Source: a virus
Reading direction: 5' to 3' (one strand)
Length of the DNA stretch: 64,000 bases
IMG/VR virus record: IMGVR_UViG_3300027850_000169
Location: 27,697-91,696 of that record
Shown in pieces: positions 12,513 through 58,319 of this stretch. The stretch's first letter is position 1, and each line of letters starts with the position of its first letter. The position numbers were made by a program, and so were the translations under genes. The notes under the pieces are model-generated. The model ran no database searches, was not told the DNA's origin, and saw nothing but the letters and a program-made list of their open reading frames with translations.

Positions 12513-12690
12513 TTGAACGACAAAGACTTTGACATCCTCACCGACCTGAAGGCACGGTGATTCCTAAGACTCACAACTTAGGTTTCTGCTTCATAGCACC
12601 AGCCTTAACAGATTTACTCTGTTCAGGTCTTACAGTCGCTCCACAGACTGACACGGCAAGCCCTGCCGCCAAAATATTCTTTGCTGCATT
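12513..12690 (-). ncRNA. Putative omegaRNA (tnpB 3' end + right end + ~16-nt flanking guide)
   Basis: Expected location for an IS605 omegaRNA; boundaries are approximate. Confidence 0.55.
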
Positions 12691-13828
12691 GATATCTCGG
12701 TCATGGTTTGTCCCACACTTAGGACACTCCCACTCTCGAATATTCAAAGGCAGCTTTTCCACAACGTGACCACAATGCCCACACATCTTAGAACTAGGAA
12801 ACCATCGGTCAATCTTGACAAAAGTACGACCATACCAGCCGCACTTGTATTGGAGTTGCCTGACCAGTTCCCCCCAGCTAGCATCACTGATAGCAAGGGC
12901 AAGTTTGTGGTTCTTGACCATATTCTTCACAACCAAATCCTCAACGGCGATGGTTTGGTTTTCACGCACCAGTCGAGTTGTCAGTTTGTGAAGAAAATCC
13001 TTTCTAGAGTCGCTAATTTCTTGGTGAACTCTAGCAACTTTAAGTCTAGCTTTGTGTCGATTGTTGCTACCTTTGACCTTGCGGGACAAACGCTTCTGGG
13101 CTTTCTTGAGCTTGCGACGTTTAGTTTTGAAGCATTTAGGGTTTGCAACTTTCTCGCCATTGCTCAGGGTAATCAAGCTAGTGATACCCAAATCCAAACC
13201 AATCTGATTAGTAGATTCTTGCCATGTTTCAATTTCAGTGTCAACCAACAAAGAAACAGTCCATCTTCCAGAGGGTGCAAGTTTTACTGTAATAGTAGAT
13301 GGCTCAGTATCAGGTGGAATCTCCCGACTCCATCTGATATCCAACGGCTCAATACACTTTGCTAAGTAAACTTGTCCATCTTTCCACTTGAAAGCGGACT
13401 TGGTAAATTCTGCATTGCCACCATTATGCTTTTTCTTGAAGTTAGGGTATTTTGCCCGACCCGCAAAGAAGTTAGTAAAGGCGGATTGCAGATGCCTCAA
13501 GCCCTGCTGTACTGGCACACAGCTAACTTCGTTGAGAAATTGCAAGTCTTCTTGCTTTTTCCACTCGGTCAACATCGCAGAAGTTTCAGTGTATCCGACT
13601 CGCTCTTGCCTTTCATACCAAGCCTCCGTTCTAAGAGCAAGGGCTTTGTTGTAGACTAAACGAGCGCAACCCATCGTTCTTCTCAGCAAGTTTTCTTGCT
13701 CAGGAGTTGGATAGAATCGGTACTTGAATGCTTTCTGTGTCATACTTCACAGTATAGCATCTATTTCGTGAAAGTGTAAACTTTAATATAAAGCCGTCCT
13801 AGAAGGACGGGGTTTCAGACCTATTTTT
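12529..13828 (-). mobile_element. IS200/IS605-family element, tnpB only (IS1341-like)
   Basis: Left end follows TTAC and has the hairpin ccgtccttctaggacgg. Right-end hairpin caccgtgccttcaggtcggtg ends at TCAA. No tnpA. Confidence 0.9.
12571..13743 (-). CDS. tnpB: TnpB RNA-guided endonuclease
   Basis: HTH start KAFKYRFYPT; RuvC GLDLG / AVEDL / DRDINAA; Zn finger CGHC..CPKC. Confidence 0.95.
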   Translation of the reverse strand: MTQKAFKYRFYPTPEQENLLRRTMGCARLVYNKALALRTEAWYERQERVGYTETSAMLTEWKKQEDLQFLNEVSCVPVQQGLRHLQSAFTNFFAGRAKYPNFKKKHNGGNAEFTKSAFKWKDGQVYLAKCIEPLDIRWSREIPPDTEPSTITVKLAPSGRWTVSLLVDTEIETWQESTNQIGLDLGITSLITLSNGEKVANPKCFKTKRRKLKKAQKRLSRKVKGSNNRHKARLKVARVHQEISDSRKDFLHKLTTRLVRENQTIAVEDLVVKNMVKNHKLALAISDASWGELVRQLQYKCGWYGRTFVKIDRWFPSSKMCGHCGHVVEKLPLNIREWECPKCGTNHDRDINAAKNILAAGLAVSVCGATVRPEQSKSVKAGAMKQKPKL

Positions 13829-18990: not shown

Positions 18991-19022
18991 TTAAAAGTAA
19001 AAATTTGTAATTGAGATTGTTT

Positions 19023-19361
19023 ATGACTAATCTAACAGAGTTTGACTTTAACACTCAACAAGTTCGAGTAATTACTATTGAAGGACTGCCTTGGTTTGTG
19101 GCTAATGACGTTTGCGTCATTTTAGGTCTTGAAAATGTTGGTCAAGCATTGAGCCGCTTAGATGAAGACAAGAAAAGTATTGCTTCTGTATACACCCTTG
19201 AAGGTAATCAAGATATGTCGGTAATTTCAGAGTCTGGAATGCTTGCCCTAGTTTCCTCAAATGGCAAACCAGATGCTAAAGAGTTCCGTAGATGGGCGGT
19301 AGATGTAGTCTTTCCGGTTGTATTCAGAACTGACAGTTATTCCCTTGAGTGGCTTGAGTGA
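19023..19361 (+). CDS. BRO-N domain protein
   Basis: FDFN..QVR...PWFVA.DVC..LG, ISESG, AK.FRRW. Confidence 0.9.
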   Translation: MTNLTEFDFNTQQVRVITIEGLPWFVANDVCVILGLENVGQALSRLDEDKKSIASVYTLEGNQDMSVISESGMLALVSSNGKPDAKEFRRWAVDVVFPVVFRTDSYSLEWLE

Positions 19362-19394
19362 ATGCAATTAATACGCTCAAATCTTACCTACTAA

Positions 19395-19423
19395 GAACCC
19401 GGCAGTCACACCGGGTTTTTTTT
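19395..19423 (+). terminator. Intrinsic terminator
   Basis: aacccgg-cagtcaca-ccgggtttttttt. Confidence 0.8.
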
Positions 19424-19463
19424 AATACTTGACGCATTCTAATTAACCTGCTATAATTAAATC

Positions 19464-19562
19464 AATCGATACATTTACAGCAATTGCGGTGAGTAGCGGT
19501 TTTAGTGTGTTGTTTTCATGTGAAGTGGTTTTTATCCCAAGCCTGCGAAAGCGGGTTTTTTT
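19464..19562 (+). ncRNA. Candidate multi-target antisense sRNA
   Basis: TTGACG(19429)-17 bp-TATAAT promoter; gcctgc-GAAA-gcgggt-T-run terminator; segments complementary to several early-gene 5' regions. Confidence 0.65.
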
Positions 19563-19576
19563 ATCAGAAAATTGGG

Positions 19577-19732
19577 TTGACAGGATTCGTATCTTCGATT
19601 AGAATAGACTTAACCGAACCACGAAAACTAAATAATATTCAATCTTTCCATAACACTTTTGCAATTGCGGGAGTCGATTTGCCGCAACCCAGCCTTGAAA
19701 ACTAGACGCACCAACGATTTCACACGTCGGCG
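19577..19732 (+). promoter_or_regulatory. CRISPR leader with promoter
   Basis: TTGACA-17 bp-TAGAAT; CCTTGAAAAC motif about 40 bp before repeat 1, resembling cyanobacterial leaders. Confidence 0.7.
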
Positions 19733-20875
19733 GTCGCAATCAACGCCACTCCCTACTAGGGATTGAAACTTGTAGCGTTGCTGGGTAACAGCCATCTGGT
19801 AAGGTCGCAATCAACGCCACTCCCTACTAGGGATTGAAACTCGCTCAAGCCCTCAATTTTCCCAGCCGTTCCTCGTCACAATCAACGCCACTCCCTACTA
19901 GGGATTGAAACTACGATTTAGCTTTCACGGCTGGCAACAATTTGTGTCACAATCAACGCCACTCCCTACTAGGGATTGAAACCTCGGATTTAAAGCAATT
20001 AATTCCTGTATCAATGGTCACAATCAACGCCACTCCCTACTAGGGATTGAAACCTCAAACATCGTTTTCATGACCAACAGCAATTTGTGTCGCAATCAAG
20101 CTCCACTCCCTACTAGGGATTGAAACGCCGATTTTGTATTCAATTCTGTCGTTAAATTGAGTCGCAATCAAGCTCCACTCCCTACTAGGGATTGAAACTC
20201 TTGCCAAACAGCAGATTCTCAAACTGCATCCCGGTCGCAATCAAGCTCCACTCCCTACTAGGGATTGAAACGCCCGATTCAGCAACTGCTGGCGCTTCTC
20301 CCTCGTCACAATCAAGCTCCACTCCCTACTAGGGATTGAAACCGCTGGGATGAAAGCGCTAGCCCCCTACTAGGGATTGAAACACAATCGAGCTAAGCCC
20401 CTACTAGGGATTGAAACCATGAGTGCAGAATAATCACAACCGACCGCTACTGCCGCAATCAAGCTAAACCTCTACTAGAGATTGAAACTGAGAAATTAAA
20501 AATGGCACAAAATACAACAATATCGCAATCAAACCAAACCCCTACTAGGGATTGAAACGCAATAAACCTAAACCCCTACTAGGGATTGAAACTTGCTCCT
20601 GTAGTCGGTGGCGGTGGAAGAAAGGCAGTCGCAATTGAGCTAAGCCCCTACTAGGGATTGAAACCTGATGTCAACTGTTCTTCACTAGCAGATACCGAGT
20701 CGCAATTGAGCTAAGCCCCTACTAGGGATTGAAACGCAATCAAAGTAAACCCTACTAGGGATTGAAACAAACGAGAGTGCGACTTTAAGATTTACCACAA
20801 TCTTGTCATAATCAAAGCAAACCCCTACTAGGGATTGAAGCGCAATAAACTCCACTCCCTACTAGGAATTAAAAC
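19733..20875 (+). CRISPR. CRISPR array: 19 repeat units (GTCGCAATCAACGCCACTCCCTACTAGGGATTGAAAC and variants), 13 spacers of 33-36 nt, one ~15-nt spacer, four spacerless junctions
   Basis: Repeats at 19733, 19804, 19875, 19946, 20017, 20089, 20161, 20234, 20305, ~20358, 20384, 20452, 20522, 20559, 20628, 20699, 20736, 20805, 20842. Confidence 0.97.
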
Positions 20876-20883
20876 GAAAGATT

Positions 20884-22778: not shown

Positions 22779-22962
22779 ATAAAGGTAGGGAGCTTTCACC
22801 CCATTACCTGTGAGCTTTGACTCAAGAAAGCGAGTGTAGCGAAAGCAGCTTGAAGCTAGTCGTAAGACAGCAATCCTGAAAAATCGAAAGATGCGGGGAA
22901 ACCCAAACAGGATAATTATCTAGTAGGGCAAAAGAGTGGGAGTAATCTCGCTCTTTTGTTTT
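22779..22962 (+). ncRNA. Candidate tracrRNA
   Basis: TTTACA-17 bp-TATCTT promoter; four GNRA-capped hairpins; anti-repeat segments TTTCA, CAATCC and CTAGTAGGG; terminal hairpin followed by a T run. Confidence 0.7.
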
Positions 22963-22995
22963 GGATTGAAACTGAAATTGAAATTGAAATTGAAT

Positions 22996-23027: not shown

Positions 23028-23055
23028 AGTAATATTTACCACTTCCTTCAATATC

Positions 23056-24578: not shown

Positions 24579-24648
24579 CTAATAGCAATCGGGGCTTAAT
24601 TAGCCCCGTTCAATTCTAACCACTTTCAAATTACCACACACTAAAACC

Positions 24649-25398
24649 ATGCAAGCTACGAAAACCACAACAAAGACCGAGCAATTCACAGGTACGGTTA
24701 CAGAAGCTAAGTTAGTAGAAGCGACCGTTTACGGTATTGACTACAGCGCCAATGAAAAATATGCCAAAGCGCTCAAAGTTACGTTGCAAGCCAATGACGG
24801 TCGGATGGTGCAGTTTTACTCCCCTAGCGTTACAGCTACTGTTAGTTGCCCCGCACGCTGTCCGATAGCGGTTGTAATCTGTGAAGAAAATGATTGGATT
24901 GAAAAAGTGCAGAGGCAGGGTGAACATAAGGTTGTCGGCGACACCCTTCAACCGAGATTGAAACTAGGCGACCTGGTGACAGTTACGGGCCGGGTAAAAG
25001 CGGCTTATAACAATAGCAAATCAGTCACAATTAACTACACTAAGCTTGTCGAACTGGTATCGTTTGGTGGACGACTACCCCAAAAAGAGTATCTCGCAAA
25101 TTCGGGTGATTTTCTTATAACTTACAACGCAAAAGGTGAGCGCGTCCGAGATGAACATAAAACCAACAACGGCGAGATTTGGAGTTACAAGCGCGTAATA
25201 AATGAAGCGCTAGAGAACGGTCACTCTTTTTCTATCCCCTTAGCGGAAATAGACTCCCTCAAGGATAACGCCGCCGACCCAGACGGTTATTGGCTCTATC
25301 AGTTGTTAGCCAGCCAAGAGACGTATTGCCTAGCCTGTTGGCTTGACAGTCGGAGGGAGAAGCCATTCATCAAGAAGCAAGCAACTGACATTCATTAA
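24649..25398 (+). CDS. Hypothetical protein (possible OB-fold N-terminus)
   Basis: FTGTVT...LKLGDLVTVTGRVK. Confidence 0.6.
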   Translation: MQATKTTTKTEQFTGTVTEAKLVEATVYGIDYSANEKYAKALKVTLQANDGRMVQFYSPSVTATVSCPARCPIAVVICEENDWIEKVQRQGEHKVVGDTLQPRLKLGDLVTVTGRVKAAYNNSKSVTINYTKLVELVSFGGRLPQKEYLANSGDFLITYNAKGERVRDEHKTNNGEIWSYKRVINEALENGHSFSIPLAEIDSLKDNAADPDGYWLYQLLASQETYCLACWLDSRREKPFIKKQATDIH

Positions 25399-25442
25399 TC
25401 CAATGGGGAGCAATCCCCTTTGTTCACTTACGCAACACCAGA

Positions 25443-26126
25443 ATGACGAAAGAATCAGAATCAGTAAAAATGAAATTACACTTAATACTATCAGGCAAGG
25501 AGTGTAATAAATCAGACTTCAAAAACCTCAAAGATTTAGCTCATCGTCGGTTTAGTGACGAGTTCAACGAAGCTATTTGCGATACGACTCTGTGCAATCT
25601 TAACCCTCCTTATTGGGCGTACTTAGAGTCTTGCGCTAAAAAACTAGAAAATAAGAAATTCAACAAAACTGAGAACAGTCAAGTTTTAGAAGTTCTTCGT
25701 TTGTGGGCGAAAATTATTCCTTTGTTTGAAGAAGTCGCCACACACATAGAAAATGTTCGCAAGGTAAGCGCAGTAAAAGCCCCGTCTCGAACGCTAGAGA
25801 ATACGGGAACTTGCGCGATATGCGCGCAGAACACCAAGCTGTCAACGGGAGGGAAAATAGTCAATCACGGGTACGAGGTTAAATGCCATCAGCACGTAGG
25901 AGGAAGCTGCTTTGGTGTGAATTACGCACCATTAGAAGTGTCATCAGAAGCACGTATTGAATATGTGAAGCATCTCAAAAAGCTTAAGATTGACTTAGAA
26001 AGTCGGGGCAAACTTGTCACGCCATTGTCCGTGGGAGAAAAATTAGTAACAGGAAATCTGAAAGGTGTAAATCGAGAGCTAGCGTTTTTTGAAAAACTTA
26101 TCACTAAAACTATGCAAGCGACCTAG
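25443..26126 (+). CDS. Hypothetical phage protein with Cys/His motif
   Basis: GTCAIC...IVNHGY...CFG. Confidence 0.65.
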   Translation: MTKESESVKMKLHLILSGKECNKSDFKNLKDLAHRRFSDEFNEAICDTTLCNLNPPYWAYLESCAKKLENKKFNKTENSQVLEVLRLWAKIIPLFEEVATHIENVRKVSAVKAPSRTLENTGTCAICAQNTKLSTGGKIVNHGYEVKCHQHVGGSCFGVNYAPLEVSSEARIEYVKHLKKLKIDLESRGKLVTPLSVGEKLVTGNLKGVNRELAFFEKLITKTMQAT

Positions 26127-48306: not shown

Positions 48307-48374
48307 TTCATCGGGGGAGAAATCCCCCACTACCACTTCAGTCGCACACAATCACTTCACTCAAGGCAAAAATC

Positions 48375-49046: not shown

Positions 49047-49105
49047 CAAAATACTTTCCCAAAACGCTTGACAAATTACTGGGTAGCCTATATGATAGTT
49101 TAGAG
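49047..49105 (+). promoter_or_regulatory. Repeated early promoter, copy 5
   Basis: TTGACA(49068)-aattactgggtagccta-TATGAT. Confidence 0.85.
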
Positions 49106-49136
49106 TCAAAAAAACGAACCACTTCAAAAACAAACC

Positions 49137-51916: not shown

Positions 51917-51998
51917 TTTATCTACTAAGCGCATTAACTTATTTCAGGTTAATGCGTTTAGCGTTTTAACCACTTCAAAAAGCAAAAAGGAAAAATCA

Positions 51999-55299: not shown

Positions 55300-55383
55300 T
55301 TTGACAGATTGTAGTAAAATACTTTTGCAAAACACTTGACAAACTATCGGGTAGCCTATATGATAGTTTACATAGTCAAGAAA
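55300..55383 (+). promoter_or_regulatory. Repeated early promoter, copy 7
   Basis: TTGACA(55336)-17 bp-TATGAT. Confidence 0.85.
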
Positions 55384-55418
55384 CAAACCACTTCAAGCAA
55401 ACTAAAAAGGAAAAACAC

Positions 55419-56982: not shown

Positions 56983-57191
56983 AGCTTTTAATTTAGAGGA
57001 ATCTATCCAATTATCTTAGCAAGATTTAGGTCGCAGCACAAGGATATATGCTCGAACCGTTATAACGCAAGGCTTTCAGTCATCTACAAATTAATTTGTT
57101 CTAAACCTTGACAACCAATGTTTATCTTGCTAAGATAAACACATCGAACCAAAAACAAACACTAAAACCGAAAACCATTCAACTGAAACAA

Positions 57192-58319
57192 ATGGAAACT
57201 ACGAACCAAAACGAACTTGTACACTTGTCGCAGGCACTTACAGAGTCGGGAAGCTTAGCTCTTGGAGCTTTACCATTAGATTTAGGAATGAGCCAGCTTT
57301 CCGCTATGGAGAAAGACACGATTGTCTTAGCCGACGGGCGGCTAATTAAGTTGGCAGGAGGAGATGACGACATTGCAATCCTAGCAGCCGACAGAAATAT
57401 GCGGGTCAAGCAGACCCTCATCCACTTATACTTGTCGGGGACGAATTTAGCGACTACTAGAGACTACTTTGCGGAGGCTTACGGCTCCTCCAAAGAATTC
57501 TGGGACAAACTGACTAAGCTGACAGGATTCAGCAAGGCTAAGCTTGAAAATGAGATAAGAATTAGCCAAGGTTTCTCAAAAAAGGAGATTGAGTCTTTGG
57601 CGGAAGCCGGAGCCACACAGTCAACCGTTATTCGGCTGTTGAAAGCTTCACCAACAGTCAAAGAAGAAGTTATCGCCCAAGCAGAGCAAGGCCGCGTCAT
57701 TACTAGCGCTGTTGCTAGTGAGATTATGGAGTGGAATGAAGAAGAAGAAGACGAAGACGATGAAGACAATGTAGACAGAGAGCCGCTTCAAAACGCATCC
57801 AATCAAACAGGCGATTCAACAGGTAACAAATCGAAAGTCGAGAACACTTGTGTTGACATTTCGGCTACGGTTAGTTGTGAAGAAGTCCTTACCGAGGAAG
57901 ACTATACTTCAACCGTCAAGTTGTTAGAGGAAAGACTTCAAGGATTGTTGAATGCTATTGAAGCGGGTCGAAACCGGAGTTTCGCCATTCGGGGGCAGTC
58001 AATCAGGGAAGAACAGGCTATCGTTTTGGCTACCTTCTATAACATAAAGCTTCCTAGCACGAGAGCGGAAAAAGACGAACCCCACTGGATTACAGAGGCT
58101 AGAGAACTCTTACCCAAAGGGGTCGCAAAAGAGTTTAGACCCCTGTACATTATGGCGCTAGTAGATGGCTACTTAGGCTATATCCGTAGCGAACCAAGCA
58201 AACCTGCTATCTATCAGAGTTTTATTAAGTATCTCAAGGAGGACTCAAGAAAAGCTTGCCATAATCTTTTTGATGTAGGATTCGCTCAAGCGAAATTAGA
58301 AGCCGAGAGTGCCAAGTAG
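57192..58319 (+). CDS. Hypothetical protein with acidic linker
   Basis: Probable start METTNQ; EEEEDEDDED tract. Confidence 0.65.
   Translation: METTNQNELVHLSQALTESGSLALGALPLDLGMSQLSAMEKDTIVLADGRLIKLAGGDDDIAILAADRNMRVKQTLIHLYLSGTNLATTRDYFAEAYGSSKEFWDKLTKLTGFSKAKLENEIRISQGFSKKEIESLAEAGATQSTVIRLLKASPTVKEEVIAQAEQGRVITSAVASEIMEWNEEEEDEDDEDNVDREPLQNASNQTGDSTGNKSKVENTCVDISATVSCEEVLTEEDYTSTVKLLEERLQGLLNAIEAGRNRSFAIRGQSIREEQAIVLATFYNIKLPSTRAEKDEPHWITEARELLPKGVAKEFRPLYIMALVDGYLGYIRSEPSKPAIYQSFIKYLKEDSRKACHNLFDVGFAQAKLEAESAK

Follow-up and report, generated by a model that had tools for sequence, protein, structure and literature searches.

A candidate trans-acting antisense RNA complementary to early-gene leaders in an uncultured cyanophage

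A short segment of a cyanophage genome, positions 19429-19562 of the stretch analysed here, is probably the gene for a trans-acting antisense RNA that acts on a small regulon of early genes. The stretch, referred to as the window, comprises 64,000 nucleotides and corresponds to bases 27697-91696 of a 91.7-kb virus record that CheckV rates as 100% complete. The record codes for a P22-type coat protein, a portal protein, a Mu-F-like protein and a large terminase. A search of a phage isolate database gave no DNA match and no match for the protein encoded by gene 24649, the principal predicted target of the RNA; for the Cas12 protein it returned distant matches only, including one to vB_AphaS-CL131. 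About 20 near-consensus sigma70 promoters were found, almost exclusively on the + strand, where they head clusters of small uncharacterised genes. Because + strand promoters of this kind precede such clusters, it appears reasonable to label the genes concerned as early genes.

Results and discussion

Architecture and conservation of the RNA gene

The segment is a discrete cassette that consists of a near-consensus promoter, a weakly structured body of ~75 nt and an intrinsic terminator (Table 1). An earlier note on this DNA had described it as a stand-alone promoter-terminator unit just before a CRISPR leader. This description holds, both for the transcription signals and because exactly the same cassette recurs in a relative, G405. 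The RNA gene is bounded on both sides, by an upstream terminator and by the next promoter. The former closes the operon of the Bro-N gene, is kept at the loci L001, L002, L005 and L043, and would shield the RNA gene against read-through from that operon. Just past the Bro-N stop codon, at 19362-19400, lies a degenerate repeat-like stretch (GCAAT...CCTACTAAGAA) that may be an orphan CRISPR-repeat remnant.

There is no plausible open reading frame within the RNA unit, and an Rfam 15 scan of the whole window returned no family at the gathering score, C4 included. The body folds only weakly (MFE z = -0.78); neither an internal covarying helix nor a conserved helix over the antisense blocks was detected among five variants of the cassette. 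An 8-bp palindrome, GCAATTGC, is present in the 5' part of the RNA (19480-87) and again in the CRISPR leader (19660-67), with a few other copies in the genome and ~1.4 expected. It could be a protein site or a site for RNA-RNA kissing.

Table 1 Features of the RNA gene, its surroundings and its predicted target sites (window coordinates)
Feature	Position	Strand	Description
Bro-N gene	19011-19361	+	Upstream neighbour of the RNA gene
Upstream intrinsic terminator	19398-19423	+	5-bp GC stem, 8-nt loop, T8; read from the sequence
RNA-gene promoter	19429-19457	+	TTGACG (19429-34), 17-nt spacer, TGnTATAAT (-10 at 19452-57); 11/12, extended -10
Predicted ~99-nt RNA	19464-19562	+	Putative start 7 nt past the -10; end in the T-run
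Conserved block A/B (GTGAGTAGCGGTTTTAGTGTG)	19489-19509	+	1/21 columns variable in five variants
Variable spacer separating the antisense blocks	19510-19520	+	5/11 columns vary; three length/sequence forms
Conserved block C (TGAAGTGGTTTT), anti-box to leader box AACCACTTCA	19521-19532	+	0/12 columns vary
RNA-gene intrinsic terminator	19539-19562	+	8-bp stem (19539-58), GAAA loop, T7; invariant in five variants
Second promoter, the CRISPR leader's own	19577-605	+	15 bases past the RNA-gene terminator
Box variant (ACCACTTC)	23038-23045	+	18 nt before ATG 23056; 10 nt past a 12/12 consensus promoter
Two 'seed A' sites in gene 23056	23075-89, 23129-43	+	Tandem coding repeat (NSDSPQSE); doubtful
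Principal predicted target, 5' leader of the 249-aa gene 24649	24618-24648	+	Box with one extra T plus 13-nt block abutting the ATG
Box variant (ACCACTTCA)	48332-48340	+	43 nt before ATG 48375 (196 aa), past a terminator hairpin; 9/10 from 48331
Leader box	49117-49126	+	20 nt before ATG 49137 (241 aa); TTGACA-17-TATGAT promoter; 10/10 complement of 19521-30
Leader box	51968-51977	+	31 nt before ATG 51999 (159 aa), right after a terminator hairpin; 10/10 complement
Leader box	55385-55395	+	33 nt before ATG 55419 (81 aa); TTGACA-17-TATGAT promoter; 10/10 from 55386
Site in the leader of the gene starting at 57192	57159-57170	+	12/12 complement of 19497-508

The variants compared were those of the window, G404/L002, L003/L005, G405/L039 and G406/L043. 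They are close kin, ~87-99% identical around the locus, and conservation has limited power for this reason. Variable columns are nevertheless distributed very unevenly, amounting to 1/33 in the antisense blocks, 0/20 in the terminator and 13/21 in the linkers (Fisher p = 2e-6, with the blocks delimited after viewing the alignment). These linkers are the inter-block spacer, the pre-terminator linker and a TGCA indel. In the promoter the -35 element is invariant, and the -10 element reads TATAAT, TATTAT or TATGAT. Compensatory changes on both partners were not found in the five variants; blocks and boxes are invariant, and the changes that were seen are one-sided.

Two relatives are particularly informative with regard to the genomic context. 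In G405 (L039 4753-4962) homology to the window is confined to 19426-19561, that is, it extends from 3 nt before the -35 element into the T-run. Bro-N, the CRISPR leader, the array, cas and the tracr region are all absent around the cassette, and the promoter of the homologue of gene 23056 follows after a further 34 nt. In G404 (L002 6001-6552) the cassette is kept together with a cas gene that is truncated to 184 codons and abuts a short array. The CRISPR-Cas module is dispensable in this phage group. A search with nhmmer, using the RNA as query, recovered close relatives only, and the distant C2c8 loci contained no homologue.

Strand-specific complementarity to early-gene start regions

The RNA body had been proposed to be antisense to the translation start regions of many early genes. 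The present analysis bears this out for + strand genes with sigma70-consensus ('early'-type) promoters, and the blocks involved are conserved in the five variants. When compared with 1000 dinucleotide shuffles of the RNA, the number of complementary 10-mers on the + strand was 29 versus 9.9 (p = 0.002); the p values for 11-mers and 12-mers were 0.004 and 0.014, respectively. Overall, complementary 10- to 12-mers were three- to eight-fold over-represented on this strand, and no excess was seen on the - strand. The complete genome of the relative G404 exhibited the same excess, again on the + strand only (k = 11, p = 0.003).

As an accessibility-aware proxy for IntaRNA, we calculated the co-fold energy minus both single-strand energies for 123 start regions. 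RNAduplex on whole 90-nt start regions proved too permissive to discriminate, and the co-fold energy differences were used instead. The ranking was headed by the start region of gene 24649 (-30.4 kcal/mol), followed by those of 59922, 57192 (-26.1 kcal/mol) and 48375 (-24.1 kcal/mol). In the phage of the window (G000), none of 28 shuffled RNAs reached either the best or the third-best value. In G406, none of 40 shuffles reached the real RNA at ranks 1, 3 and 5, and all of the top ten targets (10/10) lay on the RNA's own strand. The matches thus exceed composition-matched controls both as k-mer excess (G000 and G404) and as co-fold energies (G000 and G406).

The leader of gene 24649 as principal predicted target

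For the leader of gene 24649, co-folding predicted 37 intermolecular pairs over -31 to +21. The contact immediately before the start codon, which had been noted previously, was verified: 19498-510 is complementary to 24636-48 at 13 of 13 positions, and it is the 3' 13 nt of block A/B that match the bases abutting the ATG. In the relatives G404, G406 and L003/L005 the correspondence between the reverse complement of the RNA and the leader of the 24649 homologue amounts to 27/30 and ends at the ATG (13 exact positions, a 4-nt gap with one identity, 13 exact positions). The RNA therefore holds an inverted copy of the 24649 leader, and what had been taken as separate seeds B and C are the two halves of this one copy. 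The window lineage has acquired three changes that weaken the pairing, namely a T-to-G exchange beside block C, 3 nt inserted into the spacer and one additional T in the leader box, and it is through these changes that the block is split into the two 'seeds'. Note that G405 keeps the RNA though genes 24649-26126 are missing at the syntenic place; the G405 contig is only 17 kb long.

The target gene itself (24649-25398, +) encodes a member of a 249-aa family that was found only in phage-like contigs and is characterized by an invariant CPxGCP motif and a beta-rich N-terminal half. With regard to the functions of the target proteins, Pfam, NCBIfam and PHROGs returned nothing useful, ESM Atlas only unnamed viral clusters, and the homologues, among them relatives of the 24649 protein with 56-74% identity (P0027-P0033), are unannotated. 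An AlphaFold model of the 249-aa protein (pLDDT 42.5) was too poor for fold assignment, and a scan of viral contigs with the alignment of this protein found only the two known relatives.

A shared leader box

An unbiased count of 9-mers in the 45-nt leaders of open reading frames of at least 60 aa returned ACCACTTCA as the top 9-mer, with four leaders in G000 and five in G406. Each of these two genomes has one further copy, and in both cases this is the antisense copy inside the RNA gene. The boxes lie 14-43 nt before start codons, some of them behind early promoters and others after intra-operon terminators; the targets sit either behind near-consensus sigma70 promoters or past terminators within such operons. 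In leaders without a Shine-Dalgarno sequence the box is located at about -20 to -6.

The earlier note had listed complements of seed 19521-30 in three leaders and partial ones in two more. We recovered this pattern, with 10/10 matches at 49117, 51968 and 55386, a 9/10 match at 48331 and the variant ACCACTTC at 23038. In G406 the leader of the 49137 homologue contains a 13-nt exact complement to G406's own RNA, and the box before 55419 is represented by an 11-nt complement. The box before 51999 is kept in G404 and G406 as a 12-nt complement, and the variant at 23038 is retained in G404, G405 and G406. A homologue of gene 48375, the leader of which ranks fourth in co-folding, was not found in G404.

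The leader box itself could be a ribosome-recruiting or protein-binding element. When it was considered as an enhancer complementary to 16S rRNA, the longest identity of the anti-box with two cyanobacterial 16S rRNAs was 7-8 nt and missed the core. Neither an enrichment of the box nor a comparable leader motif was present in the distant phage G408. This V-U2-bearing phage (L050-L054) is full of the cyanobacterial HIP1 palindrome GCGATCGC, with ~200 copies of 9-mers, and HIP1 words are absent from the frequent leader 9-mers of the window's phage. Among the early promoters of the latter there is a repeated family, TTGACAAnnTAnnGGGTAGCCTATA.GATAGTTTA, with copies at 49068-49096 and 55336-55364 as well as at genome positions 15913, 16831 and 18535, which precede the window; three copies have a conserved upstream element of ~90 nt.

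Two other proposed contacts stood only in part. For 'seed A', 19483-97 indeed matches both 23075-89 and 23129-43 at 14 of 15 positions, but the seed is not conserved: the RNA of the relatives carries a 4-nt TGCA insertion, and the match exists in the window only because of a 4-nt deletion in its lineage. In G405 the coding-repeat site shows two changes that are uncompensated. The 12/12 match at 57159 was likewise verified, but as a target it is not conserved, with two uncompensated substitutions in G404 that cut the match to 9 nt; the site is possibly specific to the window lineage. Conservation extends to the 5' third of the RNA (19464-19488), which has no phage target.

Proposed mode of action

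We propose that host RNA polymerase would transcribe the RNA gene from its sigma70-consensus promoter, which belongs to the same class as those of the + strand 'early'-type operons, and that transcription would end at the gene's own terminator, as the consensus signals suggest. The largely unstructured body would then present two conserved single-stranded blocks. Block C (UGAAGUGGUUUU) is predicted to pair with the box (A)AACCACUUCA(AA) upstream of the start codons of five to six early genes (23056, 24649, 48375, 49137, 51999 and 55419), and block B with the 13 nt directly preceding the 24649 start codon. On the 24649 mRNA, blocks C and B would occupy adjacent sites and together span about -31 to -1. 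The position of the boxes right before start codons points to control of translation or stability. Pairing would most likely mask the ribosome-loading region and/or make a duplex for RNase cleavage, and translation of the box genes would be expected to fall as the RNA accumulates. All of this would occur independently of the adjacent type V-U2 CRISPR-Cas module.

A role in maintaining lysogeny or immunity, as originally suggested for the RNA, found no support, given that no tyrosine or serine recombinase, integrase or resolvase is encoded in the record, which is rated 100% complete. Temporal or dosage control of early genes during the lytic cycle appears more likely. In a bolder version, which we offer tentatively and consider rather doubtful, the one RNA would time, or switch off, the expression of an entire class of early genes in a lytic cyanophage and be an RNA counterpart of T4 RegA/RegB; it would read a 10-13-nt leader 'address' that, in leaders lacking a Shine-Dalgarno sequence, stands where such a sequence would be.

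Alternative explanations

In principle, the cassette could be without function. Part of the 24649 leader would have been duplicated in inverted orientation, would have come to lie between promoter and terminator and would not yet have decayed, with all other matches reflecting only the shared box. Most of the RNA body is an inverted copy of a single leader, compensatory covariation was not found among variants that are all closely related, and in the window lineage the pairing has been degraded by three changes, all of which fits such an origin. We nevertheless judge it improbable. Variation is concentrated in the linkers, and the antisense blocks, the -35 element and the terminator are essentially invariant; the RNA gene is equipped with a strong promoter and a terminator of its own and is shielded from either flank; and it survives as an exact unit in the different genomic context of G405. 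Somewhat less probable still is a real small RNA with host mRNAs or small RNAs as main targets, acting in takeover or as a sponge, whose complementarity to phage leaders would be of minor importance. Host transcripts are frequent targets of the phage small RNAs described in the literature (PMC12197685), and both the retention of the RNA in G405 without gene 24649 at the syntenic place and the conserved 5' third without a phage target could be accommodated in this way. Against it stand the anti-box, which matches the phage's own top leader motif, and the 27/30 mirror of a phage leader, which far exceeds the need of a host-directed seed. It is very hard to believe, finally, that the blocks act as DNA, either as protein operators, for example through the GCAATTGC palindrome that the RNA gene shares with the CRISPR leader, or as an insulator between operons. 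The unit is indeed placed between two transcription units, but the most conserved parts are blocks complementary to RNA leaders and not the palindrome alone, G405 keeps the unit without a CRISPR leader, and DNA binding would explain neither the layout of promoter and terminator nor the excess of complementarity on one strand. A trans-acting antisense RNA directed at leaders of the phage's own early genes is the reading we prefer.

The immediate vicinity of a CRISPR array suggests yet another function, that of a CRISPR-associated RNA, which would act either as a tracrRNA or, in the manner of a guide, by directing the type V-U2 (C2c8) Cas12 to the phage's own leaders. The RNA gene directly precedes the CRISPR leader on the same strand, and the effector is a TnpB-derived Cas12. 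The tracrRNA reading was tested because Cas12p, the closest solved relative of this effector, needs a tracrRNA (bioRxiv 10.1101/2025.01.20.633832). By eye, GUUUUAGU in the RNA might pair with the repeat end AUUGAAAC. The anti-repeat test failed, however: exact complementarity to the repeat extends over no more than 6 nt, and the energy of the RNA-repeat duplex was -21.5 compared with -17.0 +/- 3.2 for shuffles, 29 of 300 of which did as well. The missing anti-repeat argues that the RNA is not a CRISPR RNA, nor does it possess a repeat-like handle 5' of the 'guide' part. In distant loci, MAFFT had placed the RNA against the sequence that precedes the leader promoter, but this candidate for tracrRNA homology was rejected, the aligned stretch being the coding 3' end of cas in distant C2c8 loci. 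The persistence of the cassette in G405 without leader, array, cas and tracr region, and in G404 with a 184-aa cas, also speaks against a link with CRISPR, and G405 in particular appears to refute it largely. We consider a CRISPR-associated role extremely unlikely. Moreover, a better candidate for a tracrRNA exists at 22780-22973 and is described below.

Relation to known regulatory RNAs

The analogy with P1 c4 or P4 CI RNA drawn in the earlier note is valid in logic. It does not extend to the particulars, since the RNA has no Rfam match, has its own promoter, addresses several unlinked leaders and is not accompanied by a lysogeny module. The c4 RNA of P1 and P7 pairs through two short segments with two sites in or close to the ribosome-binding region (PMC12197685). 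Both c4 (P1/P7 immI; the Rfam family C4 also covers P4 CI) and the window RNA are phage RNAs of ~70-100 nt that base pair in trans with the phage's own mRNA, and the arrangement of two segments at two sites has its parallel in blocks C and B on the 24649 leader, which comprise 13 + 13 nt in G404 and G406. However, c4 is processed from its target operon, whereas the window RNA has a promoter and a terminator of its own. Its main target lies ~5 kb downstream, the box is common to several unlinked leaders, an antirepressor was not identified among its targets, and the host is a cyanobacterium. P4 CI is likewise a small phage RNA directed against repeated sequences in early transcripts, one RNA serving several copies of a box. 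It is cut from the early transcript itself and causes premature termination; in contrast, the boxes described here are found immediately upstream of start codons and often downstream of terminators.

In terms of gene organization, the closest parallel is with trans-encoded small RNAs that act by seed pairing, of which VpdS, PreS and DicF are phage examples and which target several mRNAs at the 5' UTR or start (PMC12197685). Like these, the window RNA has a stand-alone gene, a Rho-independent terminator, a conserved unstructured seed and several targets at start regions. It differs from them in that the predicted regulon is made up of early genes of the same phage that carry a dedicated leader box, and in that the complementarity to one target (27/30) is much longer than a typical seed. 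In T4, the endoribonuclease RegB and the repressor RegA bring about post-transcriptional shut-off of early messages via a short motif in the initiation region. The analogy is functional only, as those regulators are proteins and the recogniser here would be an RNA.

Phage antisense RNAs acting on the phage's own messages are established for a few temperate coliphages (c4, CI, sar and OOP), and the timing of gene expression in cyanophages is usually attributed to promoters alone. We know of no cyanophage for which a trans-acting regulatory RNA with its own regulon has been described. The present analysis yields the prediction that a 12-nt anti-box together with a 13-nt second block would control five to six named leaders. 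Reporter constructs would allow this prediction to be examined without a phage in culture.

The neighbouring type V-U2 CRISPR-Cas module

The promoter at 19577-605 drives a leader of ~125 nt, which is followed by a CRISPR array with 37-nt repeats (19733-20878). The convergent gene of 611/626 aa scores as a type V C2c8 (V-U2) effector (NCBIfam C2c8, 394.6 bits, cut-off 350), and C2c8 homologues with 40-87% identity were identified. Upstream of this gene and divergent from it, 22780-22973 (+) contains a 9-nt anti-repeat (CTAGTAGGG) and a hairpin with a T-run, followed by the last ten bases of the repeat (GGATTGAAAC) and then (TGAAAT)x3. With these features it resembles a tracrRNA belonging to the system, or else a natural single guide. 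The RNA at 19429-19562 resembles type V tracrRNAs (Cas12k; the Cas12p 'hacker') in that it adjoins a type V array and contains a short U-run that could pair with the AAAC end of the repeat. Unlike them, it fails the anti-repeat test and persists where the CRISPR-Cas module is missing. The distinction helps to define V-U2 guide RNAs, for which the 19429-19562 RNA should not be mistaken as tracrRNA.

In the leader-distal half of the array (20343-20878) the repeats are degenerate, and there are four repeat-repeat junctions without a spacer. No matches of the CRISPR spacers were found in five related phage genomes. Alongside the enlarged C2c8 effector, the window encodes an ordinary 390-aa TnpB of the IS605 type with HTH, OrfB and TNB domains (12571-13743, -). 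The CRISPR leader (19577-19732; promoter plus ~100-125 nt, ACCTGGAAAACT...TCAA...TTTCA) recurs in V-U2 loci of Lyngbya and Planktothrix, in which the cas stop codon overlaps the leader's -35 element. Copies were examined in L007, L013, L014, L015 and L021. The leader is conserved from this phage to these loci even though their Cas proteins are only ~32% identical, which suggests that the leader RNA has a function of its own.
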